From Eledone cirrhosa (lineage: Eukaryota), in NCBI GenBank assembly GCA_964016885.1, contig OZ024746.1, positions 14,384,001 through 14,448,000 of the forward strand: 64,000 nt of DNA. Reading direction: 5' to 3'. Both the position numbers and the translations under genes were made by a program. The notes below the pieces were generated by a model that saw nothing but the letters and a program-made list of their open reading frames with translations, did not search any database and was not told the origin of the DNA. Positions 2,469 to 61,406 of the stretch are shown here, in pieces. Each line of letters opens with the position of its first letter. Position 1 is the stretch's first letter.

Positions 2469-5279
2469 TACTAACATTTGGTATCGAAATACATACAAAA
2501 TTACTTTTGCAATGCACGGACTGTGTTCGCTTTATTATCATTTATCATTTTCTTCTTCATTTTTTCCTCTAGGAGGTGTCTTCTTAAATGACTCAATTTC
2601 AGACGATTGTAACTTAAGCCTCGGAGGAAAACTTTATTACTAGAAATATTATCTAAATGAATATACTAAGGAAAATTCGAAATATACAGTGAAGGAATAT
2701 TATCTAGGCAATATCCATTTCTATACTCGAATATTTCAATGGCTTACCTTGCTATCCAAAATTCATACTTAAAAATAGCCCAGTAAACACATCATTGCTG
2801 AACTTGTAGAGTAGTAGAATGTAAACTTAATTATTCAACCTTATATAAAATATCGAACTTATTGACACTGGTCCGTATAGTAATAATCAATTTTTCAAAA
2901 CATTTCCTTTGAGCAATACAGAATATCACTTAAGGATCATTGAAAACTAAATATTCAATTATGTATTTCTATTTTTAATATTTGGATAATTTACAAAACT
3001 TAAGGGAAAATTGGAATTCTAAAATGTTAACCACAATGCCAACAACTATAAGCAAATTGTTGACAACTATAATACTAGTTCAACAAGTCGGGTAAAATAC
3101 ACCCTGAAGACGGGAAAAGTCGACAAAGACACCTGCGGAGGAAATTAGGATACAGTAAAGGTTTATCTAATGATTTTAGTATGGTGGTAAAGCATTATTT
3201 TCCAATGAGTCGGTGTATATTTGTGTGGATGGTTTGGGTACCACTCCAAATACGTTTACAGTACTCATCTGTCGAATTTCTTGGTGTAAATCGATCAACA
3301 ACTGATCATCTCTGAAGTATTTCTGTCGCTTTATCGTCAGGGTTTTAAATATTTTAACGACTTTGAAATTTATAATTATTAGTTTTTTCACCTTTATACA
3401 TAATTTTTTCGCGGATTAGTGTAGATATTGCTTCGCCTTATGTACTGTGGGCGAGGGATAGGTCAATGGATTCTAAACTGAAGCGTGTTTTCGACATCTC
3501 ACTTCATAGGAGACGTGCAAATCTAGTTCCAGTGTTTTAGCTATAGTGCACACAAAAAATAACCCATAAGACATTTACCAGTATATTTCATTAACCATTC
3601 TAAGAATTGAAAGGAGCTAATGCAAATCGTGCAATCGTTAAACAAATATTTGACTGACCCATATCTTTTACCTTAGAGTCCTTTGTTTAGCCAGATTGAT
3701 ACGTGGTCTATCGAAATTAAAGGAAAGACGGATATGTCTATCAAAGGAGTATACAAACCTAATGATTCTTATTAATATGATGCATCTATTTTAACAGCCA
3801 GTATTATCACTGTGCTTTTACATGGCGTTTGTTTGGAAATTGATTAATTTACACTAAATAACGGACAATACAGTTGATCTTATGAGATAACATTTTGAAA
3901 TAAAACTCACTATATCAACATTTACGATTACTGAATATTTTAACCACAAACAACTGAAGTCCATTTTTTCCAGGAACAAAAAGCCAATCAGCTTCTCAAT
4001 CGCAAATAAGTTTTATTGGTGTGAGGGTGAACTTCTGAAGTATTTCAATATATTTTTACAACATTGTAGATCAAATGAATATTTTTTATTTCAATATATG
4101 AAAGTCCATTTAAATCAAGTTGTATCAATAATTTACTATATTCATTCCATTGTCCTGTATATTATTTGTTTTTTATTGATACTATTCAACAGAATGAAAA
4201 AACTAGAGCTAATCATACAGACTTTTAAAATATCTGACTAAAACGTCTGGTCAGTGCCATATGAATCAAACAGGATACAGTCCAACAGGGGCCATATGGT
4301 GGATTCTGTTTATGGTGGAAGCCATTTTATTTGATTTTATAATCTTGGACAAACACAAGAACGTCCACCTCAAATATCTCTCCTCTAACCTTTATCACAA
4401 TAGCGAGAAACATATTATTCTATTAAATAGAAACATATATACTAGTCATAAAAATATGACTATAAAATATATTTGAAGAAATATTTCTCATTTATTTAAT
4501 AGGAAAGGTTAGTTTTTATTAGTTTTATTCATCAATATTTTGTTAATATCTTATTTATGATTATTTAATATTTAATTGGAAAAAGATTAATATCCAAATC
4601 TAGAGCTAGATTTGGTAATATAAAATGATATTTAATCTATTTTTTTCCTAAAATTTAAAGTTAACACTTCAACGTTTATTTTTCTATTTCAATGCTGGGA
4701 ATTTTGTCGACAGTGTCTTAATAACGGACCTATAATATTAAATTATTTTAGATTGTTCTATATATTTATATTCATGCATTATTGTATTTCTTCGGTCCGG
4801 TGTTAATATATATTCATGCAGATACAGTATTTAATATATATTAAGCATATTAAGAACCAACTTTGTGAAAAGGTATCGCTTCCTTCTTGCAGAAAAAACC
4901 AAATAGAATTATATTTATATTATCATATTACATTTTAGTAAAATTCCAATATATATGTATGTAAATATCTATAAATCAAAATGGATTCAGTAAAAACTGT
5001 TAGATCATTACTCACCAGAGTACTCGATACCTGGGGTACTAAAGTGTGGTAATATGAAAGAGTCGGGGTTCAGACTCCTTCGTATGCAAATATCTCTATA
5101 TATAAATATATATGTAAATATGTTTTGAAACAGTGAGCAGGTTTGAAATTAGAAAATAGAATAGCTTTCACCGTATTTTTTTACTAAAGAAATTTTAGTT
5201 TGATAATGGGGTTTAGAACCCTCAGATAATAAATGGAAAAAGATGAGTATTGACGTACATAAATATATATATATATGTG

Positions 5280-5373
<94 letters not shown>

Positions 5374-5535
5374 GATGTGTGGATGTGTGTGTGTGTGTGG
5401 ATGTGTGTATTTAGATGTGAAGGCGCCAGAGATTTATGAGCAAGACTATTTATTTCCCGCTTTGCGCATGGCATATATATATAGCAGCGAAACCTTATGC
5501 TAGTCCCGTTAACCTCTTATTATATATATATAATA

Positions 5536-5725
5536 AGGGCAGTGGATTGGCAGTATCGGTAGAGGGTCGGACGCCATGCTTTCCAGCATAGTTACGTCCC
5601 TTTACGATCTGAGTTCAAATCCCGCCGAGGTTGACTTTGCCTTTCATCCTTACGGGGTCGATAAAATAAAGTACCAGTAATGCACTGGGTAATTGCTGGC
5701 CTTGTGCCTAAAGTAGAAACAATTA
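5536..5725 (+). mobile_element. tRNA-derived SINE, full length
   Basis: A-box-like TGGCAGTATCGG, B-box GAGTTCAAATCC, conserved central domain; flanked by repeated TTATATATATATAATAAG. Confidence 0.9.
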
Positions 5726-5739
5726 TATATATATAATAA

Positions 5740-5898
5740 GGGCGGTGGATTGGTAGTATCGGTAGAGGGTCGGACGCCATGCTTTGAGTTCAAATCCCGC
5801 CGAGGTTAACTTTGCCTTTCATCCTTACGGGGTCGATAAAATAAAGTATCCATACACTGGATAATTGCTCGCCTTGTGCCAAAAAGTAGAAACAATTA
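5740..5898 (+). mobile_element. tRNA-derived SINE, tandem second copy with internal deletion
   Basis: Same head and tail as 5536-5725; lacks the segment between CCATGCTT and TGAGTTCAAA. Confidence 0.9.
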
Positions 5899-6007
5899 TA
5901 TATATATTTCCTGCTATATCAAGCGTTAACCTGATATATACCTTCCATATACTGTACCGATTGTGTTGTTATTTCTGTTTACCTTTTACATACATATATA
6001 ATATATA

Positions 6008-6059
<52 letters not shown>

Positions 6060-6142
6060 ACAGGGAGAAAGAGACGATTATGAGGAAGAAAAATATATTT
6101 TTTTCCTTTTTTGTTTCTCTCTCTATATATATATATGTATGT

Positions 6143-6297
6143 ATCCCGGATTCAATCGTGGGTTACCACAATAAGTAAGGTACTCAATACATAGTAGAGT
6201 ATATAATGTTTAATATAGAAATGGCTTCTACAGGACTAGAACTGATGATTTCCTTTGAATAAAACAGTTCTAGTCTTGTAGAAGCTATTTCTATATG
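6143..6297 (-). mobile_element. Short fold-back element in (TA)n (putative PLE pLTR derivative)
   Basis: Inverted repeat ATATAGAAATGGCTTCTACAGGACTAGAACTG / CAGTTCTAGTCTTGTAGAAGCTATTTCTATAT; the tail matches 30672-30763 in opposite orientation; carries the bulged stem-loop at 6181-6201. Confidence 0.7.
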
Positions 6298-7653
6298 AAA
6301 TAACCGTGAACACAAACAGCCAATCATACCATTTCCATATGAATGTCGGAATCATTGTGACTACTGATTCCTTTTCGATACATTGAATTCTTTTAATCTC
6401 TTAAATGAAATCAGTTATATGAGTATTTGTATTACTTGCAACTGTGTATCAATATTTGTGTACTTAATATATAGCTCTGCTAATTGTATGGAAACAGAGT
6501 TGATATTTGCCCGAAACACTATTACAATGTTTACGTGGTATGTCTTTTGTATTCTAATTCAATTGAAGATGAAACAGTATATATTTCCATTAAGTGAAAT
6601 AATTTATTACTTACTGTATTAGAGATAGCATAAAATGGCGGGGAAACCATTGAAATGAATATAAAAGCGATACCGATAGCGAACCCTCTATACAACACTT
6701 ATACTTTATATAAAAGTAAACATTAAACATTGTATTTCCTTTTCAAAATCTATTAGGAGTGGTGGTCCAACCAAATCGTCTAATATTAAACATTGATATT
6801 ATAAATGAACACCTTGGAAAAATTAACAAAATGCCTGTTTTCAGAATAATGGTCATTATGTGAGACATATTGAGATTGAAAGTGCAATAAAGAAATACGG
6901 CTTCTATGGCTATTTTCATAGACAATCATTGCTGTATAATAATGAACTAAAATTAATTTCAATAGAATGAGGTATCAAAAAGAATGAAGAATTAAATAAC
7001 TACGTCAATTGTTTACTAAACAATTGTGCAGTATTAGAAATTATTTTTGCACAAACAATATGCTGCTAAGTTCCCTAATTAAACAAGTAGTTGAATGCAC
7101 AGCTATTTAAATCAATAATTATTTGTGTTGTAATGTTATAATAAGGCACTATATTTCGATAACAGAAAGAGCTTGTGAACTTATGTCATTAAATCTGGCG
7201 ATATATATAAATATTTGAACGCCACAATGCACAATGGAAAAAGTCTGTTAATGTATTCAAAACACGCCCACACAGAAACCCACACGTATATACAAACATA
7301 ATATATACACATAGATACACACACAAAAATCAGGATATTAGTGGAAACTAGTTACTGTAGTATCGTTTTGTTACCTCCATTGTTCCAGTAATATTACGTG
7401 AAATATCTGGTGCACGTAAGCAATGGATACATTGCTAAATATTTGTAGAATATAGCCTATCAAATAAACTCTTGTTTGCTCTTGGTATTTTCAACTGCGG
7501 ATAGCTTAAAAGTTGAATAAACCCAGCAGAAATTGAAGTGAGATGAGACAAAATCCTATACTGTTCAAATTTTATTTCAGCATCACTCCACTTCTATAAC
7601 TTTAGCAACACACATTATTGCGCATCGTTGTGTACTGATATATATATATAAAT

Positions 7654-8252
<599 letters not shown>

Positions 8253-8543
8253 AAGAGAAGAGACAGATGGAGATAGAGATAGAGATCTATAGATAAGATG
8301 TTACTAGTTGATACTGATAGGACCATTATTACTTAGTATTCCATGCACAAGGAAAGTAGAATGTAAATATTATAGGATGTAAATATTATTGCCTGATGGT
8401 CAAACCGTTGCGGTTTATGCTAGACCATTGGGCTCCCAACTCTAATATGTGGCGACGCACATAAAAATCACCGGTAAAACACCTCTACTATATTCATTTT
8501 GTTGTAGGACTTGAGAAAAGGTACTCAATACGGAAGTAGAATT

Positions 8544-8596
<53 letters not shown>

Positions 8597-8636
8597 AGTG
8601 TGTGTGTAGGAAATAAATTTCAGGTATATATATATA

Positions 8637-8829
8637 TAGGAACGAGTAGGACCCCGACAGCTGAGCTCAAGCCGTTTCGACGGCTAATTCTGGAGTCCAG
8701 AATTAGCCGTCGAAACGGCTTGAGCTCAGCCGTCGGGGTCCTACTCGTTCCTATTACCCACTCTGCTACCCTAAGTATTGAGTACGTTGGTGTGTTATGG
8801 TCCACCTAGTTCCTTACCACATTTCCTTC

Positions 8830-8833
<4 letters not shown>
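8637..8833 (+). mobile_element. GC-rich palindromic element in (TA)n, family copy 1
   Basis: ~58-bp arms centred on AATTCTGGAGTCCAGAATT plus a ~80-bp tail; near-identical inverted copy at 59570-59763 and a diverged copy at 14660-14811. Confidence 0.85.
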
Positions 8834-8901
<68 letters not shown>

Positions 8902-10865
8902 TGTATAGGAAATATATTTGTGCATGTACAAAAAGTATAAGGCAACGGTTTGGTTGTGTTCGACGTATTCGGTTAAACTGTTTAACACTAATATTTAGTT
9001 AATACCAGTTGTGTTACCAAGTAAGATAAATCAATCCAATATGAGTAAACAACGAAGTTCTAGATAAATAGGTTAATAGCAAAACAAGGCTCGTTTGCTG
9101 ATATTCAATATCAGAAAATGTGACTTGTTTTATCCATCAATATTAGAATAAATTATATCATATCTAATTGTTGCGTGTAAAACATCTGCTGGAGAAGTCC
9201 AATTGTATATAGTGCGTTCTTGACGCGGCAGGAGTTGATTGGCTGTAGCACTAACATAGTGATTCATAACAGAGGTTATATGAAGACATATACGATATTT
9301 TTATTTATAATTAACATATATAAATCTCGTCATGACTATTTTAAACAGTGATCATGTCACAGCTCTCTCAGTAGTCATGTGAGAACTCTAGGACTTTTTA
9401 AACATATATGGCTTCATATTCCTCTTCAAATATTGTATGACTTATATCACAAGTGCATTCAAATTTAGTAGGAATACTCTACTATAAAGTCAGTGATATT
9501 AAAAATAATTTCTCAATAATTGCATCACGAGGATTAAAGAAGCCATTAGTCAGTTTACTAGGCACTCCTCTTTCTGGCAAGATAGCAGCAAAGCAAAGAA
9601 AATTTGGGGGCTTAGAATGCTCCTACTGCATATTACTTTGTAACGGGGCAATCCAGAATAAGCATACAGTGTTCAAGAGATTTTTTGAAAGCGAAGAAGA
9701 ATCACAGCCCGTATGTGTTTAGTCAGCCATTTTCGGGAAGTGCAGGTCAGAATGTATTTAAAATGTTTGTGTGTACGTTTGTGTTTGTGTTGATATAACG
9801 GACTAAATCAAGGCGTTGTTACAGCATCTAATGACTGAAACCAGTGAAAGTATAAAAGAATAGTCTATACATTGAAGTGCCTTTAAAAATTAAGTATGAG
9901 CTTACTGCAGAAATTAATCAAGATTGCTGTTAAGTCATATTATTGAGTTCAAAGTGATTGAGTACTAGTTAGAAGCTTAAACTTTCTATAAGCACGCACA
10001 AATGGACATTTCTACGAACATGCACAGACAAATATATCTATTTACATATATACGTTTCCTAACTCAAAAGAAAACACACTGGATTTCTGAAGTTAGAAAA
10101 CAGTGTGATCATCAAAGGCAGCTTCCAATTTATACTTCAAAAGAATACAAATATTATATTGTTATGAGCTGGAATTAAATGCTTATACATGTATTCAGAG
10201 TATATTAGATTTTTCTTGTGTTTCTACATAGGAATCATCGATCAATAACAAATAGTCGGTAGAGCGTAGTAAACTTAGTACGCATTATTCAACCAGTGAG
10301 CTGTATATGAATTAATAGCTAAAAGGTATTTTCTTTCAGAAATAAATATGTGTTGTTATAACCGCATTAAATATTGTCTTTATTGAAGATCAAGAGAAAT
10401 AAACCACTGAATCCCCATGAGTATTTCTCACAACTTTACATAATTGATATTTGTTTAACGAAATATTATGTATCAACTCCATTGATTTACTCGTTAAATC
10501 TAATATCATTGATGTAATGTTTAGACATATCTACACACATTATATAGTTTCATTAATTTCATACCATTACACAATTCATCGACGCTTGAAGCCAGCTACA
10601 ACATTGGATAGAAGCTTTCAAAAATGACTGCTAATATACAAATTGTCTTTTGAAGACTACAATTGCAACCACCACAATCGAAAGAATACATGGAATACAT
10701 GCTTTCAGATTCCTGTAGAAAGTTGCAGCTTCAATATTATAGTGAAGAAATGGTCTCGCTTTTATCCGGCTTCCTCAAATATATAGATGAAACCAATAAT
10801 GTTGCCTTATTTACTATTCTACATTAAACTCTACCGCATATCTTGAATACACTTCCTTAACTAAC

Positions 10866-14289: not shown

Positions 14290-14345
<56 letters not shown>

Positions 14346-14346
<1 letters not shown>

Positions 14347-14545
14347 TAGAACACTGGAAGGTAATATCCGTAGTGGTAGAGCACTCAGTCCATGGGGATC
14401 TTCAGCTCGGACTGGTATTGGTTATACGGAAGATCCGCATACGGTGAAACAGTTGTTCTCGGTATGGTGAACTAACTGTTGTGTTACTACTGGTCCCATG
14501 GACTGAGTGTTCTACCACTACGGATATTACCTTCCAGTGTTCTAC
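14346..14545. mobile_element. 200-bp element with ~50-bp terminal inverted repeats in (TA)n and a decayed internal hammerhead
   Basis: 14346-14396 / 14495-14545 inverted; internal CGGAAGA-tccg-cata-cggt-GAAA-cagttg-TT (14427-14457); a solo copy of the arm lies at 32952-33002. Confidence 0.75.
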
Positions 14546-29314: not shown

Positions 29315-30671
29315 TGCGTGTGTATAAAAGGGAATCAATTATAAATTCACTACTTTTACAATATATTTTTATTTAATAGTGTCAAACTCCGATAATAATA
29401 ACAGATCTGGAAATGTACATAAATTGAGAGTAAAGCTGTCATTTTTAACATTGGGTAATAATTTATATTTTGCTTATATCAAAATTGTGAATTTCGCAGA
29501 TAAATGTAATATCGATATTTTATTATATGAGTATTCTAAAATGAGTAAATATTCAAGTAAATATTTGTTTAAATCAATATTAAAAAATCCTCAATGTTGC
29601 ACATACATAAGATGTATATCATAAATATGAAATTAAATTTATTATATATTTATCCAAATGCGTATGCATTTATACTAGGAAATTATATTTGTGAGAGAAC
29701 GTATTTGATAACATTCAAATCACGTTTCTTCGTTATATCTCAAAGTATTAATCTCTATCATATGAATATTTAAATCACGTTCTTACATGTATTTATAATT
29801 CCATAAACATGGGTCGACAGTTGTTACTCTAGTACAGTTACCGTCAATTTACTATGAAACGTCACGCTTATTTTCTAATTTCTTAACAATTTCTTATTTT
29901 CTGACACTAAACTTGCTAATATCATTTAAAAGAATGTATATACCGCTTATCAATTGCATTAATAAATTCCATTAAATTAATAACATTAAAGAATAATTAC
30001 TGATTAAATAAAGACGCGTGGACAATTATTGAATCTACCAGCTCATTTATGCCTGGGAAATTTCTCGAGCTTTGTAAGACTACATCACGAAAATATATAG
30101 TTAAATGCTGCTTTAAGCTTTCTCCGTAAGCTATAATCAGTAAATTATTTTGTTTGCATATTTTGCATTTGCTTCTATAGTATTGCTTTTCGTTTTGCTT
30201 CTTATAAAGTTAGATGCAGCGAATCCTGCATATCACTTAATTACAGAATTACTTAACACAGCGTTACACCAGAAATCAGATGAAAAACAATAACTACTGG
30301 AAACGTCTTATTTTTCTGTGGCAACTTAAAAGAAAATTTATGGATTTAACTTCAAAGATGTCGTATATGCCAAGATGATAATTAAGTAGTTGGTTTTTTT
30401 CTGAACAAATAATTCACATGTGAATATTCTTGAATTCCTTTTAAACTTCTTTGATTTATAACAAAAGTACACATATAAAGGCAACATTTAATATTTAAAT
30501 ACCATTAGGTGGATTGCAAATTCATCGTATATTCAAAAGCAAATGCACATATTCATACATACTACAAACACAGCCACACGCTCTCTCTCTCTCACACACA
30601 CATGCACACACACATACGTAAACACAATCATGCAAACACACACATACACAGAGACACACACACATATATAT

Positions 30672-30759
30672 AAATGGCTTCTACAGGACTTAATTTAAAT
30701 GTTTATACTCTGCTATGTTTTGAGTACCTTACTTACTGTGGTTACCCCCCATTGAACCC

Positions 30760-30763
<4 letters not shown>
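30672..30763 (+). mobile_element. Short element in (TA)n, same family as 6143-6297
   Basis: AAATGGCTTCTACAGGACT plus tail TGAGTACCTTACTTA.TGTGGT.ACCC..ATTGAA.CCGGGA; bulged stem-loop at 30706-30726. Confidence 0.7.
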
Positions 30764-30795
<32 letters not shown>

Positions 30796-30933
30796 AAGGT
30801 TAAACAAGGTTCAATGAATAAATCAAAGAATGAGTTTTACAATAGATTGGAAGCACTCAACGGTAATGGTTTTCCGAAGTTATTAATATTAATTCAAAAT
30901 ATTAACAAAATAGATATTCTTGTGATCAAGTAT

Positions 30934-30998
30934 ATTTTATTATACATATTTCAGAGGTACTGAGTTAACTTCAACAGTACGTCCTCATCAGATAAAAT
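30934..30998 (-). ncRNA. Type I hammerhead ribozyme
   Basis: Minus: attttat-CTGATGA-ggac-gtactg/cagtac-ctct-GAAA-tatgta-TA-ataaaat. Confidence 0.8.
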
Positions 30999-31113
30999 AA
31001 GATGATGCATGACATACCCTGACATAGTAGATGGTTAAGATTCAGTCATGGTAGACTACCATGACTGAATCTTAACCATCTACTATGTCAGGGTATGTCA
31101 TGCGCATCATCTT

Positions 31114-31178
31114 ATTTTATCTGATGAGGACGTACTGTTGAAGTTAACGCATCACCTCTGAAATATGTATAATAAAAT
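31114..31178 (+). ncRNA. Type I hammerhead ribozyme (stem II partly decayed)
   Basis: attttat-CTGATGA-...-GAAA-tatgta-TA-ataaaat; mirror of 30934-30998. Confidence 0.7.
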
Positions 31179-31219
31179 ATACTTGATCACAAGAATATCT
31201 ATTTCATTAATATTTTGAA

Positions 31220-31284
<65 letters not shown>

Positions 31285-31285
31285 A

Positions 31286-31380
<95 letters not shown>

Positions 31381-31384
<4 letters not shown>

Positions 31385-31524
31385 AACTATCTGGTTGTGG
31401 AACCAACCAACCAACCAGAAATTTATAAATTTATAAATTTGTGAATTTATAAATATATAATAAACTGAAGTGAAAGCAACTGGTGCGTGTGTTTCTTATT
31501 GGCAACATGACCCTCCCAAAGTAT

Positions 31525-31530
<6 letters not shown>
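31381..31530 (-). mobile_element. Short element in (TA)n; inverted homolog at 61255-61400
   Basis: Shared GAAGTGAAAGCAACTGGTGCGTGTGTTTCTTATTGGCAACATGACCCTCCCAAAGTATAACAATAT and (CCAA)n. Confidence 0.8.
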
Positions 31531-31603
<73 letters not shown>

Positions 31604-31642
31604 ATATTACCAAATGGAAACTATATTTATAAAACCATATTT

Positions 31643-31705
31643 ATTTCATTATACATATTTCAAGGACACGAAAGCAAATTATGGTACGCTTTCATCAGAT
31701 AAAAT
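31643..31705 (-). ncRNA. Type I hammerhead ribozyme
   Basis: Minus: attttat-CTGATGA-aagcg...tcctt-GAAA-tatgta-TA-atgaaat. Confidence 0.7.
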
Positions 31706-31831
31706 ATAATATAGATCAGTTTTATAAACAAATATTGACATACCCTTAAAGAATGCGACTATGTCGGTTGGAAGCTCCCGGATAGTCTATTGGGTATGTC
31801 AATATTTGTTTATAAAACTGATCTATATTAT

Positions 31832-31894
31832 ATTTTATCTGATGAAAGCGTACCATAATTTGCTTTCGTGTCCTTGAAATATATATAATGAAAT
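31832..31894 (+). ncRNA. Type I hammerhead ribozyme
   Basis: attttat-CTGATGA-aagcgtac...gtgtcctt-GAAA-tatata-TA-atgaaat; palindromic ATATATAT stem III. Confidence 0.75.
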
Positions 31895-32081
31895 AAATAT
31901 GATTTTATAAATATAGTTTCCATTTAGTAATATATTGTATTTTTACTCCAATAATTTGTTGAGTGCTTTATATCAGTTATAAAAATATTTGCTTGTTGTA
32001 TCCCAACAAATTAAATATAACTTCTACATATATATATATATTATATAATCTATATATATATAATCTATATATATTATATAA

Positions 32082-32290
32082 TCTATATATCTAAAACAGA
32101 GAATGTCTGTCTCTCTGTCTGTCTGTCTGCTTGTCTGTCTAACTCCCTAAAACTCGAGAACCACTCAACCGATTATTTTCAAACTTTACACATGTAATAC
32201 TTATGGTCGTGTAAGAGTTTTCAGCAAAAAACATTTCAAATTATCAATGCCCTAGGGACCGCATTAGGCGATTTAGCAATCTCTCTCTAT
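32082..32290 (+). mobile_element. Helitron-like non-autonomous element end
   Basis: TCTATATATCTAAAA start, (TGTC)n microsatellite, then AACTCGAGAACCACTCAACCGATT..TTCAAACTT, a layout typical of non-autonomous Helitron/Helentron-like repeats. Confidence 0.5.
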
Positions 32291-32465
32291 AATTCTTAGT
32301 CTTTCTTTTTAGATAGATACATAGATATAACGTCGCGCCCTTATAATGTATGTCTGTATATCTGGCTGTCTGGATTACGACATTATGACGTCGCTATTTG
32401 TGTGTGTGTGTATATGTATATAGCCCCATGGATTTTATCTATTACATTCACGTATTATATTTCGA

Positions 32466-32523
32466 ATACCTGATGATATCACCGGATTCATACCGAACCC
32501 GGTCATTGAAATGATCATAGTAT
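32466..32523 (+). ncRNA. Type I hammerhead ribozyme (minimal, palindromic stem III)
   Basis: atac-CTGATGA-tatc-accgg/ccggt-catt-GAAA-tgatca-TA-gtat; ATGATCAT palindrome. Confidence 0.8.
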
Positions 32524-32606
32524 AATAAACCTTTCAGGGATTTACACAAATCCAGCCTCCTGTCATTTCATTATATTATATATATATATACATATATGTG
32601 TATATA

Positions 32607-32700
<94 letters not shown>

Positions 32701-32728
32701 ATCAAAAGATGGTTAAAAGAGTTCCATG

Positions 32729-32799
32729 TATTTTATTATGCGCATTTCAAAAACAAATATCATCATGCAATAACATTTGTGTTTTCATCAGATAAAATA
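32729..32799 (-). ncRNA. Type I hammerhead ribozyme (palindromic stem III)
   Basis: Minus: tattttat-CTGATGA-aaac-acaaatgtta/tgatatttgt-tttt-GAAA-tgcgca-TA-ataaaata; ATGCGCAT palindrome. Confidence 0.85.
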
Positions 32800-32910
32800 G
32801 GAAGACATGATATGAAGGTTAAAAAACACTTGTGGATAGTGCAGTTTTAAATCAACAATTCTTATCCGATATCTGCATTGCTTTATTGTACTACAATAAA
32901 ACTCACTTCC

Positions 32911-32951
<41 letters not shown>

Positions 32952-33058
32952 GTAGAACACTGGAAGGTAATATCCGTAGTGGTAGAGCACTCAGTCCATG
33001 GGACATATGTTTTATGTGTCTCTTGGGTTGAAAAGGAGGTCAAGTATGTTATAAATAG

Positions 33059-33109
33059 TTTGCTCCGAAGAATCCAAACCTCGGTTTGGAGGAAACAATT
33101 GTAAGCAAA
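33059..33109 (+). ncRNA. Type I hammerhead ribozyme with U4-to-C core variant
   Basis: tttgct-CCGAAGA-a-tccaaac-ctcg-gtttgga-g-GAAA-caattg-TA-agcaaa; all stems perfect, ACAATTGT palindrome. Confidence 0.8.
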
Positions 33110-33152
33110 TAAATGACTTAAACTGAACTTTGATTACTGTAATCTCTCTCTC

Positions 33153-33215
<63 letters not shown>

Positions 33216-33229
33216 GAATACATTAATAA

Positions 33230-33354
33230 TAGTTGAGGAAATCTCATAAACTGACTCTGTGGGTCAGAAAAGAAACCCCTGCGAGGAATTGAACCCCGCA
33301 TCGCTCGAGTGCATAGAGTTCGATGATTAATATAATAACCATTTACGGTGGCAC
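33230..33354 (-). mobile_element. tRNA-like/SINE head between microsatellites
   Basis: Minus: GCCACCGTAAATGGTTATTATA...GCGGGGTTCAATTCCTCGCAGGGGT (T-arm/B-box); no complete cloverleaf. Confidence 0.5.
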
Positions 33355-33370
33355 ACAAACAGAGAGACAG

Positions 33371-33534
<164 letters not shown>

Positions 33535-35512
33535 AGTAGTAAGTAAATAGGCTGGGAGAAATAACGGTTAACGTTGTTTTGAATATTGTTTTTTTTTAAA
33601 TTGGTGATATTCATTTAATAAACAAGAGATCATTAAGTGAATTATGCTGAAGTAAAGTATGGTATTAACAGTATTATTGCAAATACAAGATATCTATTGA
33701 AAGATAAAATATGTTCAGACAGAGCATTTAAATGGTTTATCTAGAATGAGAATAATTTGTATTATTACAGCTGTTTCTTAGCATATTGCACTAGCTGATT
33801 AAATGGAATGCTTTGAAAGATGTAGGTGAATATCAGAAATAGATAATATTGAATAAATAAATAAATATGTATATAAATAAATACGAACGTAAACAAATAG
33901 ATAAGAATAACGTAAGTTTTGTTGTATTACCTGACAGGATGGATTCTATAAACGCCATAGGCATCATTGGAATTAGATTAAGAATAGAAGAATATTTAGG
34001 TGACGGCTATTGAGTTATATAAACTTAATAAACAAGCATTGCTAAGGATTTGTGGTGTAGCAAATTACTTTAATGTGAAGGGAAGGAGAGTTGATTAAAC
34101 ACAATTTATATTAAGTAGTTATGGGTTGTAAATGTTGTCAATAAAATGGGATGGGATGATAAATTATGCTAAAATGATAAAGAAAAAAGAACTGAAATTA
34201 TAATGAAATAAATTCCGCTAAATAGAACTGGCTAAATGTGCAATAGAAAATATTGAAGTATTAAATCAACGAAACACATATATGTATATGATATGACAAA
34301 CTTAACAAGCCTCATTATAGAAATAAACAAGTGTAAGTACATTACTTGAACCTAAAGAAGATCATGAGCACTGCCCTTCCCCGCCAGATTAATGAATAGA
34401 AGAAAAATGGTTTCCTCTCTTAATATCGTTTCATCCCCAATATCACTTTTCCCACACAGATACATTCCACCCCACACAGATACATTCTCTCACGTTTTTT
34501 GTCATTCTCAACAGTGTACACACTCTCATAAATAAAAACAAAACGAAGAAAAACGGTTTGGACACTTTTCTCCATCAACATACGGACTGTGTGTGTGTAT
34601 AGGTGTTGATATGTGATTATGTAGCTATTTAAGCACTTGCTTCTGTCTTTGAATCTGTGTATGTATGCAGGTATGCGTATGTGTTTATCCATATGCATGT
34701 TGTTTTTTTTACACCTACTTCAGTAAAAAATACCGTTAAAGAAGATGGAAGTCTTCATATTTTTACACTACCATTCATTGATGGTTTACTAAGTCGGATA
34801 ATATGTCAGGAATTAATCGGTTTTGTACGTCAAGCAAAAGCAAAACCTAAATTTTCAGTCGAGCCAAATGGTGATTTCTGTTTTTTTGAGATAGTAGTTG
34901 TTTAGAAGCTATTTAGACAGCATCAGATGTGTAGCTAAATTAAGCTAATTTAGTTGTTGTTTTTGTTGGTGTTATTTTTCATTGTTAATGAATTGAACAA
35001 AAGCAAAGAAGTATATTTATTTTGTTATGTAACGATATCTTGTTCAACTCAGGTATTCTATTATTATTGGAAATAGGCTAATTTCGCTCTTTATTATACA
35101 GAAATGATATAAGAATTCGGAGATATTTATAATGTTTGTATCGGTTAATCAATAAACATAAATAGGGCTATTTGAAGAGGAAATCATGAATAGAGTATCG
35201 GGTTTCCTTTCCTTCCTTTGCAAAGTATTAAAGCTTATAATTATTAAATCCAATACCAGTGTGTATTCGGAATTGTTTAACCAATATTTGTTATTGCTTC
35301 AAGCTCCTTCCCTATATTTCACACACATACACGGACATTCACCCCCCACCCCCACGCACACAGATATATATATATATATATATATATGAGGCAGTGATTT
35401 TCTCAATGGCTTGGAATCCAGTCCACGCATCGCTATTTCCATTCCACTGAATTATTTTTTTAATAAGTTTCCAGTGTCCTCGCTATGCCTGGAGACCTAT
35501 ACGGAAAAAGAT

Positions 35513-37322: not shown

Positions 37323-38649
37323 ACAATACTTATGCTGTGCCAATTCTAACGACAATACTTATGCTGTGCCAATTCTAACGACAATACTTATGCTGTGCCA
37401 ATTCTAACGCCAACATTTGGCCTACTGAACTGGTCATTGCAAGAACTAAGTGAGATGGATGTTAGAACTCGAAAACTTCTCAGTCTTACTGGGAACTTTA
37501 ACATCAATGGTGATGTGGATAGGCTATACTTCTCACGCAAGGAAGGTGACCGGGGTCTAAAATCAATATTAACAACATATGAGACCCGGATAGTGACACT
37601 GAAGCAACACCTTCAACAGATGAAAAAGGTTGGCAACCATCTTGCCCAGGTTTATGACCATGAAAAAAGAAATATCATTAGAATAGCGACTGATCTGGAG
37701 GAGAGATATGGAATAAAGCCTGATATAAATCTCTCACCCAGAGAAATCGGAAGATCCTATTCAATGTTCAAACAAGATAAAAAAATTGACCAATTTACAG
37801 AAAAAGTTGTGCATGGATACTTGAGGCGTAAAACACAGACCATAGAGGGGATAAACCACTCAAAAAGCCTGGCATGGAGTTCCGACAAGTTTATGACATC
37901 ACACCTTGAGGGATATCTCTATGCAATACAGGAACAAGAACTCCCTACCAAATATCTGCTGCACAAAAGAGGAGGGCCAGCAGCTGACAATAAATGTAGA
38001 CTATGTAAAACAAAGATCGAGGATGTAAGCCACATTGTTGCCAGCTGCGAAAGAATGTCATCTCGCTACTACCTCCCCATGAGACACAATGGGATAGCTA
38101 GAACCATCTGGAACGCACTTCGGAAAACAAAATTAACAACAAACGAGGAAGAATATATTGAGACAGATGGCACTAAGGAATACTGGTGGAACCTGAAAAT
38201 AAAAACTGCCACCAAATTAAAGCACAACCGGTCTGATATTGTAGTTTGGGACCACACATTGAAAACGTGTTCTGTTGAGGAGATCAGCTGCCCACTTGAT
38301 GTAAACGTTGTCAGAAAAATACAGGAGAAGGAGGACATCTACGGACCATTGATGAGGAGTTTACAAATCCAGTATCCAAGATACACCTTTAGCTTCATAC
38401 CCATCATTATTGGTGCTACGGGTTATATACCAACCCGCTTGGACCAAAGTATGACTAAACTTGGATTTGTGGACAAAAAGCGCAGCTCCCTAATTCATAG
38501 TCTACAAATCGCTGCGATAGCTGGCACCTTCAAAATTTGCAAAACATTCTTGCGATTCAAGGGATGACAATTTCTTTTCTTTTACAACCTTGCCACCAGG
38601 AAGGTGGCCGGTCAAAAAAATATACTCAAAATTAAGAGAAAGAGAAAAC
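37323..38649 (+). mobile_element. R4/Dong-like element, family A, 5'-truncated copy (ORF remnant 37395-38567)
   Basis: Near-identical to 40581-41849; CCHC knuckle and RLE (here RSD instead of RPD); flanked by (TACA)n. Confidence 0.93.
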
Positions 38650-38686
38650 ATACATACATACATACATACATACATACATACATACA

Positions 38687-39094
38687 TAACATTATTTATG
38701 CCTGTGATTATTGGGGCACTGGGATATGTTAGTAACTGCCTCAGTACAAATCTTGAGAAGCTAGGCTTCACAGGAACAGATAGAACACAACTAGTTAGGA
38801 AACTACAAGTACAATCCATTAATGGAACAGTAAAAATATGTAAAACATTCCAAAAATTGTGCATCTAATAACTGCATATACACATGTACAGATACAAAGC
38901 ATATACACATGCACAGATACAACTCAAAACATCCACATCCACACATACAATAACATCGATATCTACACATGCATGCATACATATCTACCTAGTTGATGTT
39001 GTGTAAATTCCAATGAGAGAGTCTTGTGTCTATGTTAGAAACCGACTCTCTCTCTCTATTGGTAAAACTTTGTGAAATTATAAAACCAGAAGAA
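38687..39094 (+). mobile_element. R4/Dong-like family B, short 3' fragment
   Basis: FMPVIIGALGYV...INGTVKICKTFQKLCI* plus a 3'UTR matching 36900-37183; in (TACA)n. Confidence 0.9.
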
Positions 39095-39180
39095 CATACA
39101 TACATACATACATACATACATACATACATACATACATACATACATACATACATACATACATACATACATACATACATACA

Positions 39181-41767
39181 AACTTTGAACTCCAAATTAC
39201 ACCAGTTGAAACAACAACTCACAGCTACAACAGAAAGACTAAAATATAAGTCAACAGCCCATAAACGACAAGTGCTAAATAGATTGTTTGCCAGAGATCC
39301 TAAATCAGTTTATCGCAGCTTCGGTGGCAAAAGCTCAATCCCTGTAAACGACACCCCTTCAAAAGAACAGGTTGAGAACTACTGGAGATCTGTATGGGAA
39401 ACGGATGACGGATTCAACAGACAAGCTAATTGGCTAAAACAACTGGAACAGGACTACTGCCAACATGTCCAGACAAAACAATATGACATAGATGGGTCAA
39501 TACTGGAAACAGCTCTACAGAAAATGTCGAATAGGAAATCGCCAGGCCCAGACCTCATTACAGGATACTGGTTGAAGAATTTCACTTTCTATCGGCAAGA
39601 TCTCATACGGCTGTTTACAGAAACCATTAAGGGCACACAAGAACTGCCCAGATGGTTATCAACTGCCACTACTCTCCTCATTCCCAAAAATAGCCAAACC
39701 ACCCTTGCTAAAAATTACCGCCCAATTGCCTGCCAAAACATCATGTATAAATTATATACTGGGTGCCTTAACCTGTTCTTACAGGATCACTGTGCTACCA
39801 ACAACATCATAACACCTGAGCAAGCTGGTGGAAAGAGGGAGGTGTGGGGTTGCATAGATCACCTACTAACTAACAAAATGATTCAGGAAAAAACAACAAA
39901 GAATCGCAGAAACATGACTGTCGTGTGGCTGGACTATCAAAAAGCATTTGATAGTGTACCTCATGGGTGGATTATTAAGGCTTTACAGTTAGCTAAAGTC
40001 CCACAACCATTAGTAGCTGCTGTTGAACGCCTGACCAAGAACTGGTACACCAATTTGATCCTTAGAGGTGAGAAGGAGCAGGTTAAGACTGATAGGATAC
40101 ATTACCAGAAGGGCATCTTTCAGGGTGATAGCTTGTCAGTACTACTCTTCGTTCTCTCACTGAATCCACTATCTTACCTACTCAGGAAACAAGGTGGACA
40201 AAGAAGTGGGCCCAGAAGTATCTCCCATCTTTTCTTTGTTGATGACCTGAAGTTGTATGGGCCAAATATCAATGACATCAAGAAACAATTGGACCTCATT
40301 ACACAATTTTCAACCGACATCAAAATGAAATTTGGTGAGTCCAAGTGTGCATATTTGGCAGTAAAACGTGGAAGAGCTGTGCCCTCCTCTAGAAATCTAG
40401 AGATGAACGGCCTGACAATACAACCTCTGCAGTCAGGTGACAACTACAGATATCTTGGACAGGATGAGAATGTCAGATATGATGGACCCATAAATAAGGA
40501 GAGAACCAGAACTGAATACCTCAGAAGAGTTAAAAAAATATGGTCATCAGAACTGTCAGCATACAACAAATACATTGCCCACAATACCTATGCTGTGCCA
40601 ATTCTAACGCCAACATTTGGCCTACTGAACTGGTCATTGCAAGAACTAAGTGAGATGGATGTTAGAACTCGAAAACTTCTCAGTGTTACTGGGAACTTTA
40701 ACATCAATGGTGATGTGGATAGGCTATACTTCTCACGCAAGGAAGGTGGCCGGGGTCTAAAATCAATATTAACAACATATGAGACCCGGATAGTAACACT
40801 GAAGCAACACCTTCAACAGAGGAAAAAGGTTGGCGACCATCTTGCTCAGGTTTATGAGCATGAAAAAAGAAATATCATTAGAATAGCGACTGATCTGGAG
40901 GAGAGATATGGAATAAAGCCTGATATAAATCTCTCACCCAGAGAAATCGGAAGATCCTATTCAATGTTCAAACAAGAAAAAGAAATTGACCAATTTACAG
41001 AGAAAGTTGTGCATGGATACTTGAGGCGTAAAACACAGACCATAGAGGGGATAAACCACTCAAAAAGCCTGGCATGGAGTTCCGACAAGTTTATGACATC
41101 ACACCTTGAGGGATATCTCTATGCAATACAGGAACAAGAACTCCCTACCAAATATCTGCTGCACAAAAGAGGAGGGCCAGCAGCTGACAATAAATGTAGG
41201 CTATGTAAAACAAAGATCGAGGATGTAAGCCACATTGTTGCCAGCTGCGAAAGAATGTCATCTCGCTACTACCTCCCCATGAGACACAATGGGATAGATA
41301 GAACTATCTGGAACGCACTTCGGAAAACAAAATTAACAACAAACGAGGAAGAATATATTGAGACAGATGGCACTAAGGAATACTGGTGGAACCTGAAAAT
41401 AAAAACTGCCACCAAATTAAAGCACAACCGGCCTGATATTGTAGTTTGGGACCACACATTGAAAACGTGTTCTGTTGTGGAGATCAGCTGCCCACTTGAT
41501 GTAAACGTTGTCAGAAAAATACAGGAGAAGGAGGACATCTACGGACCATTGATGAGGAGCTTACAAATCCAGTATCCAAGATACACCTTTAGCTTCATAC
41601 CCATCATTATTGGTGCTACGGGTTATATACCAACCCGCTTGGACCAAAGTATGACCGAACTTGGATTTGCGGACAAAAAGCGCAGCTCCCTAATTCATAG
41701 TCTACAAATGGCTGCGATAGCTGGCACCTTCAAAATATGCAAAACATTCTTGCGATTCAAGGGATGA
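39181..41767 (+). CDS. Reverse transcriptase + CCHC zinc knuckle + PD-(D/E)xK restriction-like endonuclease (N-terminally truncated, no native start)
   Basis: Motifs KSPGPD, KNYRPIAC, WLDYQKAFDSVPH, KGIFQGDSLS, HLFFVDDLKL, YRYLG, RKEGGRGL, CRLC..HIVASC, RHN, RPDIVVWD..VVEISCP; no internal stops. Confidence 0.93.
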
Positions 41768-51854: not shown

Positions 51855-52040
51855 TGCTTCTACTTTTGGCACAAGGCCAGCAATTACCCAGTGTATTACT
51901 GGTACTTTATTTTATCGACCCCATAAGGATGAAAGGCAAAGTTAACCTCGGCGGGATTTGAACTCAGAATGGAAAGGGCCATAACTCTTTGCGTCAAAGC
52001 ATGGCGTCCGACCCTCTACGGATACTACCAATCCACCGCC
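51855..52040 (-). mobile_element. tRNA-derived SINE, full length with 15-bp TSD
   Basis: TSD GTCTTCAGAAATAAT at 51840-51854 and 52041-52055. Confidence 0.93.
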
Positions 52041-52768
52041 GTCTTCAGAAATAATGATATTTGTTTATTGAAAAAAACCAACAAAGATTTAATATAATAG
52101 GTCTGTTTGGGAACAGGTTTTGAATTGACCAATAGAAAAGTAGTAAGAGGTCAAGTTGATAGAATAGTAGTAGTAGAAATTTTATTTAGGGGTAGAGGAA
52201 TGCAGACTTAAGTTTTGAATGGAAAGAATACTTTGAATGAAAAGAATACTTTGGGGATGAAAAGAGGTCAAGCCGGTGAAGGGTACACGAAAATTTGATG
52301 CTATTAAAGAATAATGTTGATGTTAAAACCGAAGGAGAATAAAATTTTAGGGTAAAGGTGTTAGTGGAAAATACCAATCTTATTTAAAACACAAGGAATT
52401 TAGATCTATAACAAGAAATTAAATTAATTGATAGGTATACTTATAGGGATAAATTTATATTAATTCATATGGATGTGATAAATAAGAATTAGATGTTATT
52501 AAAGAATGTTGTTAAAAACGAAGGAAAATAAAATTTTGGGATAAATGTAGTAGTGAGAAATACCAATCTTAGACTACAATGAGTCTATATTCATAACAGG
52601 AAATTAAATTAATTTATATGTATACTTTTAGGTATTAATTTTAGGAAAAGAGAGCTGTAAGAGGGAAATAAAATTATGAAGTTCTCTGTAGTAAAGTACT
52701 AATTATAGGTTAACTAAATTAAAAAAATTAATTATAATAATATGTAAAATATAGGTGTAAGGTGTATA

Positions 52769-54410
52769 TTAATTAGGTTTATAATATTTGAAAGTTCTTC
52801 TAATTCTATGATTGCAAGATATAATTAATTCTTGTCGCTTATTTAATAGGATATCCTTAGATTTCATTATTTCAAAAAGTTCCTGGGAGCATAATCTACA
52901 CTCATATCTGTTATTTTGATAAGGGGTGGCCCTTTTGAGCACACTCCAGGTCAGGTTGTAATCGATATTCTTTTTTCTATAATTATTAATTGTTTCAGCC
53001 AATGATGTTGTATTAGCTAATGCGGCATTTTTAAAACTATGTTTGTGGGTATTAAATCTTACTTTAAATTGGTTAGATGTAGCTCCTATATATGAATAAG
53101 TTGAGTCCTTAGTGATAATTTTACATTTATATACTATGTTATTAATAAGACAGTTTCCCTTTAATGGGCAATTTCTTTTGTTTCTACAGTTACAACCATT
53201 CGTGAATATTATATCAGGGGAGTTAGTCAAATTTGGTGTGGAATTTACTCGACTTGTTATATGTGAATGAGATGGTGGTTTGTTGCGGTTTATTTTAGTA
53301 TTACGGTTAGTTTGATGTGTTGGTGGTATATTCGTGGGTTTTTTACATTTATATGCATTGTACGCACTTATATTTTGTTGTATATTCTTGGTAGTGGAGT
53401 AGGAAAATTTGACAGTTGATGTATTTAAAGTTTGATGGTATTTATGGTTTGGGGGGAAGTTTTTCTTTAGGATAGTAAAAGATTTTTTAGAGATATCTTT
53501 AATTTGTAGATTAAATGGAGCATTATACCAAGTAACTCGTCTATTACGGTTTCGATGTTGTTTTTTATATTTATACGATGTATCAGGATGTTTACTAAGA
53601 GAATTAGTATTAGTGAATTTATTATATATAGGTTTAGTTAGATTAACTGATTTAGGTGTTTTAGTCTGATTATTAGGAATTTTGTTCGTAATGTTATTAA
53701 CGTATATTGGAGAATTAGGATGAATGGTTTTTTGAAAGTTATTATATTTTATGTGAGAAGAGGTAGAGAAATTAAGTTTTAGGTTGGTATTTTGGGGTGT
53801 AGTGTGAGTGGCATTTAGGTGTGTGTTTTTCATTTGGTGTTTGTTGGTAATATTGGGTTGTATGTTTGAAGTATTATTGGTGCAAGGTATATAGACTAAT
53901 TTGTTTTTGTGGCCGCTTCTAGCTAAAGCTTCGTTATAAAAGGGCGCATTTTTATCGAATACATCCTGGTTAGATGAAAGGTTAGAAATTCTGAGTGAGA
54001 TATTATATGCTAGGTTTTTAAGGATAGATCTAGGGTGATTGGATTGTTAGTGTATGTAATGTAAGTTTAAGTTTTGGTTAGATTTATGGTAAGGTTGGTA
54101 GGTACCCGTAGATAAGTCTAAAGTTATATCTAGGAAATTAACTATTTTACTGGTGTTTTCAAATTTAATAGTGAGACTATAATAGTCTTTGAGGAAAGTT
54201 CTAATAATTTTTTTTTTTTTTTCAATTTCTGATAGGCTAAGGTTAGTGGAAAGAAGAAGACAGTCATCACGATATAAACCACCTTTAAGGTGGGGAAAAG
54301 AAGGATTTATGTTAAATAGAAGAAAGAGGCCCACAAGATCGGTAATTTAGGCAGAATCACTAGAGCCCATAGTAATATCGAATAGATTACTATATGTATT
54401 TATGGTCCGG
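52769..54410 (-). pseudogene. Penelope-like retroelement (Naiad-type): RT core/thumb + CxC linker + GIY-YIG endonuclease, frameshifted
   Basis: FDITMGSSDSA*ITDLVGLFLL, GLYRDDCL, NFLDITLDL, SNHPRSILK, CNCRNKRNCPLKGNCL, IVYKC..YIGAT..FKVRFNTHKHSF, CRLCSQE, LLNKRQELIISCNH; open frame 52769-53833. Confidence 0.92.
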
Positions 54411-54461
54411 TATTCCTTCTGAAATTCCAGTAGTGGAAACTATATTTATAAAACCATATTT

Positions 54462-54525
54462 ATTTTATTATACATATTTCAAGGGCCACCAAGGCAAATT
54501 ATGGTGCGCTTTCATCAGATAAAAT
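54462..54525 (-). ncRNA. Type I hammerhead ribozyme, upstream of and co-oriented with the PLE ORF
   Basis: Minus: attttat-CTGATGA-aagcgcacca...tggtggccctt-GAAA-tatgta-TA-ataaaat. Confidence 0.8.
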
Positions 54526-55667
54526 ACTGATTTGTTTTATAAATAAATATTGACATACCCGGAAAAAAAGACAACCTTAATGGTTGGAGCTTCCTGGATA
54601 GTGGAGATATTACATTTATTGAGGGTGATAGAAAATTATGATTGAGTATGCAAAGGAGTGTCCGAAAGGTTGAAAAGATAACGGTTTATTTAAATTAAAC
54701 TGTTGGATTAAGGTGATATGTGAGGGAGAGAGAAAAAAAGAAAAAAGAAAAAAAGAATAAAGAAATGAGAAAGATAGGAGAGGAAAGAAAGAACGATTAT
54801 ATATATTTTGACACTGAAAATAGCGTGCATGAAGAGAAGAGCGTAAGTATATTTAAGTGAGAGAAGATAAGAGTGTCAAAGGATAAATACAGCGTAAGTA
54901 TATTTACGTGAGGGAAGAAATGAAGAAAAGAAGAAATGAGAATAGCGTGGAAGAATAATATTTATAATGCAGGATTCATTATGTTTTGATTATAATATTT
55001 ATAATGATAGGTTGAAAAATTAGATTAAAATTAAAAATTAAAATTTAATGATGTGTATGTTAAGGATTATAGATTATTTAAATACATATATATTATTTTA
55101 GAGCAAATCTAGTATAGTTTATTTTATTAAAAGTTGTAAGTCAAAATTTTAAACATCCAAATAATTCTAAATTTATGGAAAATTTTCGAGAGTTTACAAA
55201 AGAATAACCACTTAGTTATATTATAAAAACAGTAAGGAAGCGTAAAGGAAGTTATAAGTGATTTTTTTAAGAACCCAGATGACTCTAAGTTAAGATGCTA
55301 TAAAGTTAAAAAGTAAAATTTTCTATCTTAAAATTAAAACATGAACCATATGTTATTTTATACGAAGTCATAAATTTACTTGCTGTAAACATTTAAAAAG
55401 ATTTATCTTAAGAATATATTTAAAGCATAAACCATAGGTTACTCCACATATATATAAAAAAACATATGTTTTTCCACATATATATAAACATTTGGATATA
55501 TATATTAAAAACGTTTGAAAATATAAGAATATATAAATATAACAATATAAAAATATTGGAAGGTATAAAAATAATGGTTTTTCTATATCTTTCAAAGGAA
55601 TTTTCAAAAGATTTTCTTAAACCCTTTTTTCCGGGTATGTCAATATTTATTTATTAAAAAAATCTGT

Positions 55668-55731
55668 ATTTTATCTGATGAAAGCGCACCATAATTTGCC
55701 TTAGTGGCCCTTGAAATATGTATAATAAAAT
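55668..55731 (+). ncRNA. Type I hammerhead ribozyme
   Basis: attttat-CTGATGA-aagcgcac...gtggccctt-GAAA-tatgta-TA-ataaaat. Confidence 0.8.
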
Positions 55732-55881
55732 AAATATGGTTTTATAAATATAGTTTCCATTTATTAATATTTTATGCATTTACTCCACCTACTGTTGAGT
55801 GCTTTTACATCAGTTATAAAAATGTTTAAGCTTGTTGAAATGTTTAAGCTTGTTGAATCCCAACAAATTAAATATAACCTC

Positions 55882-55930
<49 letters not shown>

Positions 55931-61153: not shown

Positions 61154-61195
<42 letters not shown>

Positions 61196-61198
<3 letters not shown>

Positions 61199-61400
61199 CG
61201 TTTCTGAATTTGTTTAGCAAGATTCTTTATCTGAAAACGTGTGTTGAAACCGATATTGTTATACTTTGGGAGGGTCATGTTGCCAATAAGAAACACACGC
61301 ACCAGTTGCTTTCACTTCAATTTATTATAATAAATTTATAAATTTAGGAATTTATAAATTTATGGTTGGTTGGTTGGTTCTTCAACCAGATGATTGTTTA
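61196..61400 (+). mobile_element. Short element in (TA)n, homolog of 31381-31530
   Basis: Direct sequence match in inverted orientation. Confidence 0.8.
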
Positions 61401-61406
61401 TATATT

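Follow-up and report, generated by a model that had tools for sequence, protein, structure and literature searches.

Anatomy of the pile and its hammerhead motifs

The 64-kb stretch of Eledone cirrhosa DNA analysed here (hereafter the window, to whose coordinates all positions without a locus handle refer) contains a pile of approximately 2.5 kb in which short repeat fragments are stacked between (TA)n tracts. The pile opens with a 3' tail fragment of family H (30665..30762, plus strand), a hammerhead-bearing repeat whose core is not included here and whose related copies follow a CTGATGA core elsewhere (16 matches in 15 loci), and continues with an (AT)15 target tract (30763..30792). Two arms of family A come next, one with a tail (30793..31054, minus; 98% identical to the upstream pLTR of the tandem copy L163) and an inverted one without (31056..31228, plus; 95% to L163), followed by an (AT)n tract of about 80 units (31223..31381), a tail-only fragment of family G (31382..31528, plus; in other copies a CTGAAGA core lies just upstream, e.g. 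at 61445 on the minus strand) and (AT)40 (31529..31607). Family B is again represented by an inverted arm without tail (31592..31745, minus; 154 nt, 97% complementary) and an arm with tail (31792..32027, plus). An unrelated dispersed repeat with (TGTC)n and no hammerhead (32091..32395, plus), which we take to resemble Helentron-associated HINE/DINE-1, precedes the 3' end of family C (32420..32571, plus) and a (TA)64 tract (32572..32698). The tail-less 3' end of family D (32699..32857, minus) stands head-to-head with a tail end of the same family (32858..32913, plus; 98%), and beyond (AT)17 (32914..32948) a tail end of family F (32949..33003, minus) is fused head-to-head, with no TA between, to the 3' end of family E (33004..33144, plus; 99.3% identical to the full-length copy L131). 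A last (TA)n tract (33153..33215) closes the pile. The flanks (29500-30560 and 33216-33350) had no match to any fetched genomic locus. At least three further fragments of hammerhead-bearing families thus lack their core in the pile.

Ten motifs were found within the window by a descriptor of the type I hammerhead with a short self-complementary stem III; seven lie between 30933 and 33110, and the remaining three at 14985(+), 54518(-) and 55675(+), the first of these belonging to a further family with a GTAC palindrome. The pile motifs are those of the two A arms (30933-30999, minus, cut after 30941; 31113-31179, plus, cut after 31171), the two B arms (31642-31706, minus, cut after 31650; 31831-31895, plus, cut after 31887), family C (32466-32523, plus, cut after 32519), family D (32729-32799, minus, cut after 32737) and family E (33058-33110, plus, cut after 33103). 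All seven show the type I order of stems I-III around a CUGANGA, GAAA and UH core, six being canonical (CUGAUGA) and the seventh, family E, carrying the U4C variant CCGAAGA, which is fixed in 40/40 E copies. GAAA and a UA cut site occur in 7/7, stem I spans 4-8 bp, and stem III is in every case a self-complementary 8-mer, i.e. a short palindrome permitting dimers, of five different sequences (AUAUGUAU in three motifs, and AUAUAUAU, AUGAUCAU, AUGCGCAU and ACAAUUGU in one each). The plus arm of family A displays a clustered stem II change relative to the minus arm (GCATCA for TCAGTA, 31145-31150), which weakens its motif.

Dinucleotide shuffles of 30792-33109 produced the motif in 0/2000 cases, and again in 0/2000 after removal of (TA)n, as did whole-window shuffles of 64 kb (0/50). 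Because the descriptor had been drafted after the motifs were seen, a non-circular control was run with core and spacing only on 79 blind 10-kb stretches, taking the reversed sequence as background: the palindrome and a stem I of at least 4 bp were both present in 19 of 65 real matches vs 0 of 17 reversed ones. An earlier sequence-only reading had proposed seven type I hammerheads of about five families; all seven were recovered, each to within 1 nt, and the count of five families was correct. Its description of the families as separated by (TA)n holds for the most part. The exceptions are C, in front of which stand a different repeat and a (TG/TA) run, and E, which is joined without any spacer to a fragment of family F. 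The Rfam search that it advised returned no hammerhead match at the gathering score across the window, nor at E ≤ 10 in 30000-34000; Rfam holds no model that catches these motifs, so that such a check would miss them. Below-threshold Rfam matches to mir-279 and MIR1513 at 31016-31094 were rejected, as they merely mirror the perfect palindrome.

Other repeats in the window include two tandem non-LTR copies (37350-41767, plus) with RVT_1 and zf-RVT, an open frame of about 865 aa and (ACAT)n boundaries, presumably an R4/Dong-type, microsatellite-targeting element. Between 18900 and 27650 lie repeated units of about 660 nt interrupted by (ACAT)n, together with a degenerate (TATA/CATA)n array 6.2 kb long. 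A family G end (61190-61520, minus) has a CTGAAGA core, a stem III (GAAC/GGAC) that is not palindromic and, one after the other, two tails that both finish in an AT run.

Parent elements of the five families

The seven motifs lie 38-61 nt, counted from the cut site to the short 3' end, inside 5'-truncated Penelope-like elements (7/7, five families), and the best genomic matches of the pile blocks are 97-99% identical. Longer copies elsewhere in the genome encode a reverse transcriptase (RT) followed by a C-terminal GIY-YIG endonuclease (EN). Such copies were retrieved for family E (L131, with 760 aa open and pLTR motifs 4.3 kb apart; also L133), family A (L163, pLTR motifs 4.5 kb apart), family D (L227, L229 and L231; tandem at 3.9 kb) and family C (L135, in which the C tail continues into the ORF). 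Among the retrieved loci, no ORF-bearing copy of family B at > 95% identity was found. A longer relative of B, 79-86% identical to it, lies in the window itself (52769..55885, minus) and comprises a pLTR hammerhead at 54518(-), an RT fragment, a 425-aa frame (52769-54046) with a CNCRNKRNC linker and C-terminal GIY-YIG, and an inverted copy with its hammerhead at 55675(+); Pfam gave no match in this endonuclease frame. A repeat noticed by eye at 51870-52050, which we assume to be SINE-like, interrupts the 3' UTR of this B-related element. With a single RT and GIY-YIG ORF between direct pLTRs (tandem in L131, L163 and L228/L229), tails and inverted truncated copies, these are EN+ Penelope-like elements (PLEs).

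The encoded proteins contain HADKT/HSDKT, RWR/RWI, a divergent RT4 of the form FDITMGSSDSAQ, YRDD, a CxCx5C linker, YIG and CxxCxxE. The linker and endonuclease were traced in all five families and DKT in E, C and D, family B being followed through its related subfamily. A protein search retrieved 557 relatives, with approximately 31-40% identity among the 120 matches listed; the two informative names were molluscan, and no clade names were given. C-terminal EN, the CxCx5C linker, DKT, divergent RT4 and CxxC/CxH around the conserved E and N are all present, and (TA)6+ occurs within 300 nt of 26 of the 28 motifs in the blind stretches vs 27% of background positions. According to the available text of Craig et al. 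(2021; PMC8557442), these protein motifs, canonical hammerheads and (TA)n targets characterize the Hydra clade. Judged by their protein motifs, the families are Hydra-type PLEs.

The origin in Penelope-like pLTRs proposed by the sequence-only reading is borne out by the longer copies, which carry RT and GIY-YIG between pLTRs. Its Naiad label fails, since Naiads carry the endonuclease at the N-terminus and are devoid of canonical hammerheads (PMC8557442, available text), while here the endonuclease is C-terminal, the motifs are those of the Hydra clade and hammerheads are present. PLEs of other clades, with a YVDD-type RT and C-terminal GIY-YIG, adjoin some of the Hydra-type copies (L132:8760-9899, L135:6634-7986 and L134:466-1578).

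Insertion geometry

Each family ends at two discrete 3' positions, with or without tail, located at internal AT runs. Counted in nucleotides after the cut site, these are +44-49 and +212-218 for E, +55-61 and +147-156 for A, and +44-53 and +131-138 for D (25-27 own-window and duplicate loci were dropped before the 3'-end and join counts). The 5' ends of bystander copies lie mostly 50-150 nt before the cut (28/69) or within the tail, and since most thus fall shortly upstream of the motif, even an insertion of approximately 150 nt tends to carry the whole motif. Insertions starting at the ribozyme cut were considered and rejected, only 2 of 69 bystander 5' ends being ≤ 3 nt from it. An inverted insertion of family F at 14345-14545 is cut within its own hammerhead core.

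Same-family neighbours on opposite strands were divergent in 35 cases vs 3 convergent. Head-to-head joins were of the same family in 65/71 cases, with 5 more between the cross-matching B and B2, so that the idea of common cross-family joins was discarded; F|E in the window is the sole clearly mixed case of the 71. Families A and B in the pile are both head-to-head inverted pairs, one arm with tail and the other without. In the available text of Cervera and de la Peña (PMC4209133), opposite-strand motif pairs 100-700 bp apart are already described, as is a predominance of truncated solo copies. The notion of D as a fixed 215-nt non-autonomous unit arose from its 24/24 best matches flanked by TA on both sides and was weakened by 4,130 sites that reach further 5', some to the RT/EN frame; the recurrent D junction may reflect microhomology.

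The repeated targeting of one (TA)n locus suggested by the sequence-only reading thus takes the form of repeated insertion into a single (TA)n tract, into which the 3' tips of the five families were likely inserted one after another. In the scheme that we infer, GIY-YIG would nick (TA)n and the RT would prime, on one DNA strand or on both, at a UA run lying internally; early drop-off of the RT would leave two short cDNAs that join, and the fresh (TA)n at each end of the insertion would remain a target. Such a scheme fits the behaviour of an anole PLE, which, in the available text of PMC11167929, cleaves and extends both strands, with the RT starting internally at two sites, one at either limit of the tail, and whose hammerhead is dispensable for insertion in vitro.

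Genome-wide abundance and clustering

In the 3.0-Gb genome, a 15-mer common to A, B and D (TATTTTATCTGATGA) occurs 45,251 times vs 7 for its reversed control, the complete A/B/D-type pattern (stem I, core, spacer, GAAA, palindrome and UA) 44,731 times vs 0, and the variant-core motif of family E 4,078 times vs 0, i.e. at least 48,800 exact motifs of the A/B/D type and E together. Evenly spaced sampling (79 blind 10-kb stretches) revealed 28 motifs, and none in the reversed sequence, giving an estimate of about 106,000 motifs genome-wide (Poisson range 71,000-153,000, which overdispersion would widen further). The descriptor misses longer or non-palindromic stems III (families G and H, and two more cases in 790 kb), and 6 of 124 motif-centred loci yielded no motif by it, so that motif counts are low.

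Motifs cluster: motif-centred 3.1-kb loci contained 0.65 extra motifs vs 0.11 expected. Among the 124 such loci, from which six own-window and duplicate loci had been dropped and among which a few near-duplicates remain, the descriptor found one motif in 66, two in 32, three in 15, four in 3 and six in 2, the latter two representing a 310-nt tandem array plus one motif. Two or three families occurred together in 30/124, no mixed pile of more than four motifs was present among the 124, and none of the 79 blind stretches had more than two motifs in 2.3 kb. Five-family piles at about 0.4% of neighbourhoods, or some tens of loci, are a geometric extrapolation and no count. The term hotspot used in the sequence-only reading holds locally, and seven motifs in 2.2 kb mark the tail of the clustering at (TA)n that runs through the genome. 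With no comparable mixed pile sampled, this one stands above everything in the sample, and being so extreme it may owe something to a local feature that favours the site for piling.

Predicted folding and cleavage

For 7/7 motifs, the active fold of the homodimer is predicted to beat two active monomers by 11-20 kcal/mol. The hairpin of the two A arms has a predicted free energy of -257 kcal/mol (z -39), and under equilibrium folding forcing the active fold on the A and B motifs would cost 95-106 kcal/mol. As the arms are divergent, transcription of either strand would reach the antisense arm first, and the A and B motifs would fall into hairpins; all four are predicted to be fully sequestered in 150-170-bp hairpins whichever strand is transcribed. 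Predicted folds of both full-length strands contained no stem I pair for any of the seven motifs. In context, C, D and E are predicted to lie 2.7-10.7 kcal/mol from the active fold, E being the closest at 2.7 kcal/mol.

C and E, the free motifs of the plus strand, share 0-1 stem I pairs and 6/8 stem III pairs and cannot partner, while on the minus strand D is predicted to be the lone free motif, its compatible partners A and B being buried. A, B and D have a common stem I and 6-8 of 8 compatible stem III pairs, making heterodimers possible in principle. In the available parts of the literature, U4C is a known hammerhead variant whose in vitro activity is much reduced (PMC3088659), minimal metazoan PLE hammerheads show no monomer and low dimer cleavage (PMC4209133), and a review describes weak cleavage even as dimers (PMC6765202). 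As C, D and E are predicted near their active fold and trans partners are abundant, some cleavage is conceivable, and these three may cleave weakly as monomers or in trans. The motifs are of the dimer type, and if they act at all they probably do so in the tandem RNA of the full-length element.

Origin of the pile and alternative explanations

We consider it highly probable that the pile consists of pLTR hammerheads at the 3' tips of five Hydra-motif Penelope-like families, likely placed by serial insertion in one (TA)n tract, and that it is likely passive, with no working array. The seven motifs are the product of five insertions and are present because the tips of five elements came to lie on top of one another in a single TA repeat; as folding predictions trap four of the motifs in long hairpins, the pile is probably a by-product and not a device for cutting RNA. 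In a read-through RNA of the locus these four would form long dsRNA hairpins instead of active folds. The sequence-only reading had proposed that the array could fragment or circularize a read-through transcript of either strand, an idea that fares poorly in silico (four motifs sequestered, C and E incompatible, D alone on the minus strand) and that we regard as very unlikely. Core, stem I and palindromic stem III are intact in all seven, the A/B/D heterodimers would be feasible, the modelled E motif is close to its active fold and seven motifs in 2.2 kb exceed the mixed piles of all 124 comparison loci; set against this are the burial of A and B and the missing stem I pairs in both predicted strand folds, the low in vitro activity reported for U4C (PMC3088659) and for minimal metazoan PLE hammerheads as monomers or dimers (PMC4209133), and the 95-99% identity of the copies to their own families, at which intact cores need no selection at the pile.

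That the locus matters as a source of dsRNA, its two 150-170-bp inverted repeats yielding ADAR or Dicer substrates if transcribed, is unlikely, though less so than an array: the hairpins are near-perfect, divergent pairs are common genome-wide (the 35 vs 3 above) and, among the first 100 listed sites, 18 of 99 gaps are ≤ 2.3 kb vs 1.3 expected, but it follows incidentally from how the elements insert, leaves the motifs unexplained and concerns a pile around which no host gene was identified. A non-LTR retrozyme, i.e. a tandem, circRNA-forming non-autonomous element, would account for type I motifs a few hundred nucleotides apart, and the genome does contain a 310-nt unit repeated head to tail, each copy carrying a type I hammerhead (CTGATGA, CGCG palindrome), in an array that ends at (TA)n (L083:1700-3256, L116 and L059; G000 C6, C28 and C11). 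We judge this extremely improbable for the pile, which has no tandem repeat of period 150-500 and no head-to-tail order, and whose motifs belong to five families that occupy both strands and each lead back to a longer element coding for RT. The 310-nt repeat, absent from all 79 blind stretches, is a candidate non-LTR retrozyme and as such a better circRNA lead in this genome than the pile. Least credible, to a nearly negligible degree, are chance motifs or an assembly artefact. The sequence is AT-rich and microsatellite-dense, long palindromes can be misassembled and no single piece from the contig sets of four sequencing runs, in which every pile block is multi-copy, spans the stretch; yet no shuffle reproduced the motif, the inverted A and B arms diverge by 3-5% and stop at unequal ends typical of their families, and the same geometry recurs at dozens of loci.

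Comparison with known systems

As far as the available text of PMC8557442 goes, the families resemble the Hydra clade (including Hydra-1_Obim and Penelope-n_HM) in the C-terminal GIY-YIG, DKT, an RW-type motif, the CxCx5C linker and CxxC near a conserved E, as well as in targeting (TA)n, in having hammerheads close to the 3' end, and in their tails and inverted copies truncated at the 5' end. They differ in unit length (3.9-4.5 kb vs 1.4-3.0 kb in the Hydra families listed there, for which < 3 kb is worded only as "generally short"), in RWR/RWI instead of RWK, in tails of approximately 90-165 nt vs 30-40 nt, and in comprising at least 10 motif families and 5e4-1e5 copies vs a small number of families. 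With Naiad PLEs they share a (TA)n bias and inverted, truncated insertions, whereas Naiads, in the portions available, have an N-terminal endonuclease, DKA and no canonical hammerhead.

Like the PLE hammerheads surveyed earlier, as available to us, the motifs have a short palindromic stem III, are of the dimer type and occur mostly in single truncated copies or in opposite-strand pairs 100-700 bp apart; unlike those, several here are without a G10.1-C11.1 pair and the family E core is fixed for U4C. Non-LTR retrozymes (PMC7229834; bioRxiv 10.64898/2026.07.22.740005; partial texts) likewise have type I hammerheads, an association with PLEs and very high copy numbers, but consist of a single unit repeated head to tail on the same strand, in contrast to the five families on both strands found here. 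A recent octopus repeat annotation names Penelope elements and, in its available part, neither Hydra nor ribozymes (PMC13282606), and in the freely accessible literature we found no account of a mixed PLE hammerhead pile or of a genome-wide Hydra-clade count. The kind of element is already known and its members here are new, of note mainly for their genome-wide scale and clean insertion geometry.

Significance of the locus

The locus is a compact catalogue of Hydra-type Penelope insertion, displaying the two 3' ends, truncation upstream of the hammerhead, head-to-head joins and re-use of a TA tract. The wider point is one of scale, with 48,800 or more exact motifs and an estimate of about 1e5 vs 2,000-9,000 per genome in the PLE survey and up to 120,000 retrozymes in axolotl, as given in the available texts. 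Young families with long open frames, such as E at 99% identity, are material for probing the role of PLE hammerheads, which the literature available leaves unsettled. It is a long shot that the approximately 1e5 dimer-type hammerheads, about half of them cross-compatible (through the stem I and palindrome of A, B, D and their kin), are dense enough for solo copies to pair, in cis or trans, and thereby cleave read-through or intronic RNA of the host, and that the F|E fusion (33003/33004) records the RNPs of two different elements priming both strands of one break. If true, such two-RNP priming would explain the long-unexplained inverted insertions of PLEs.
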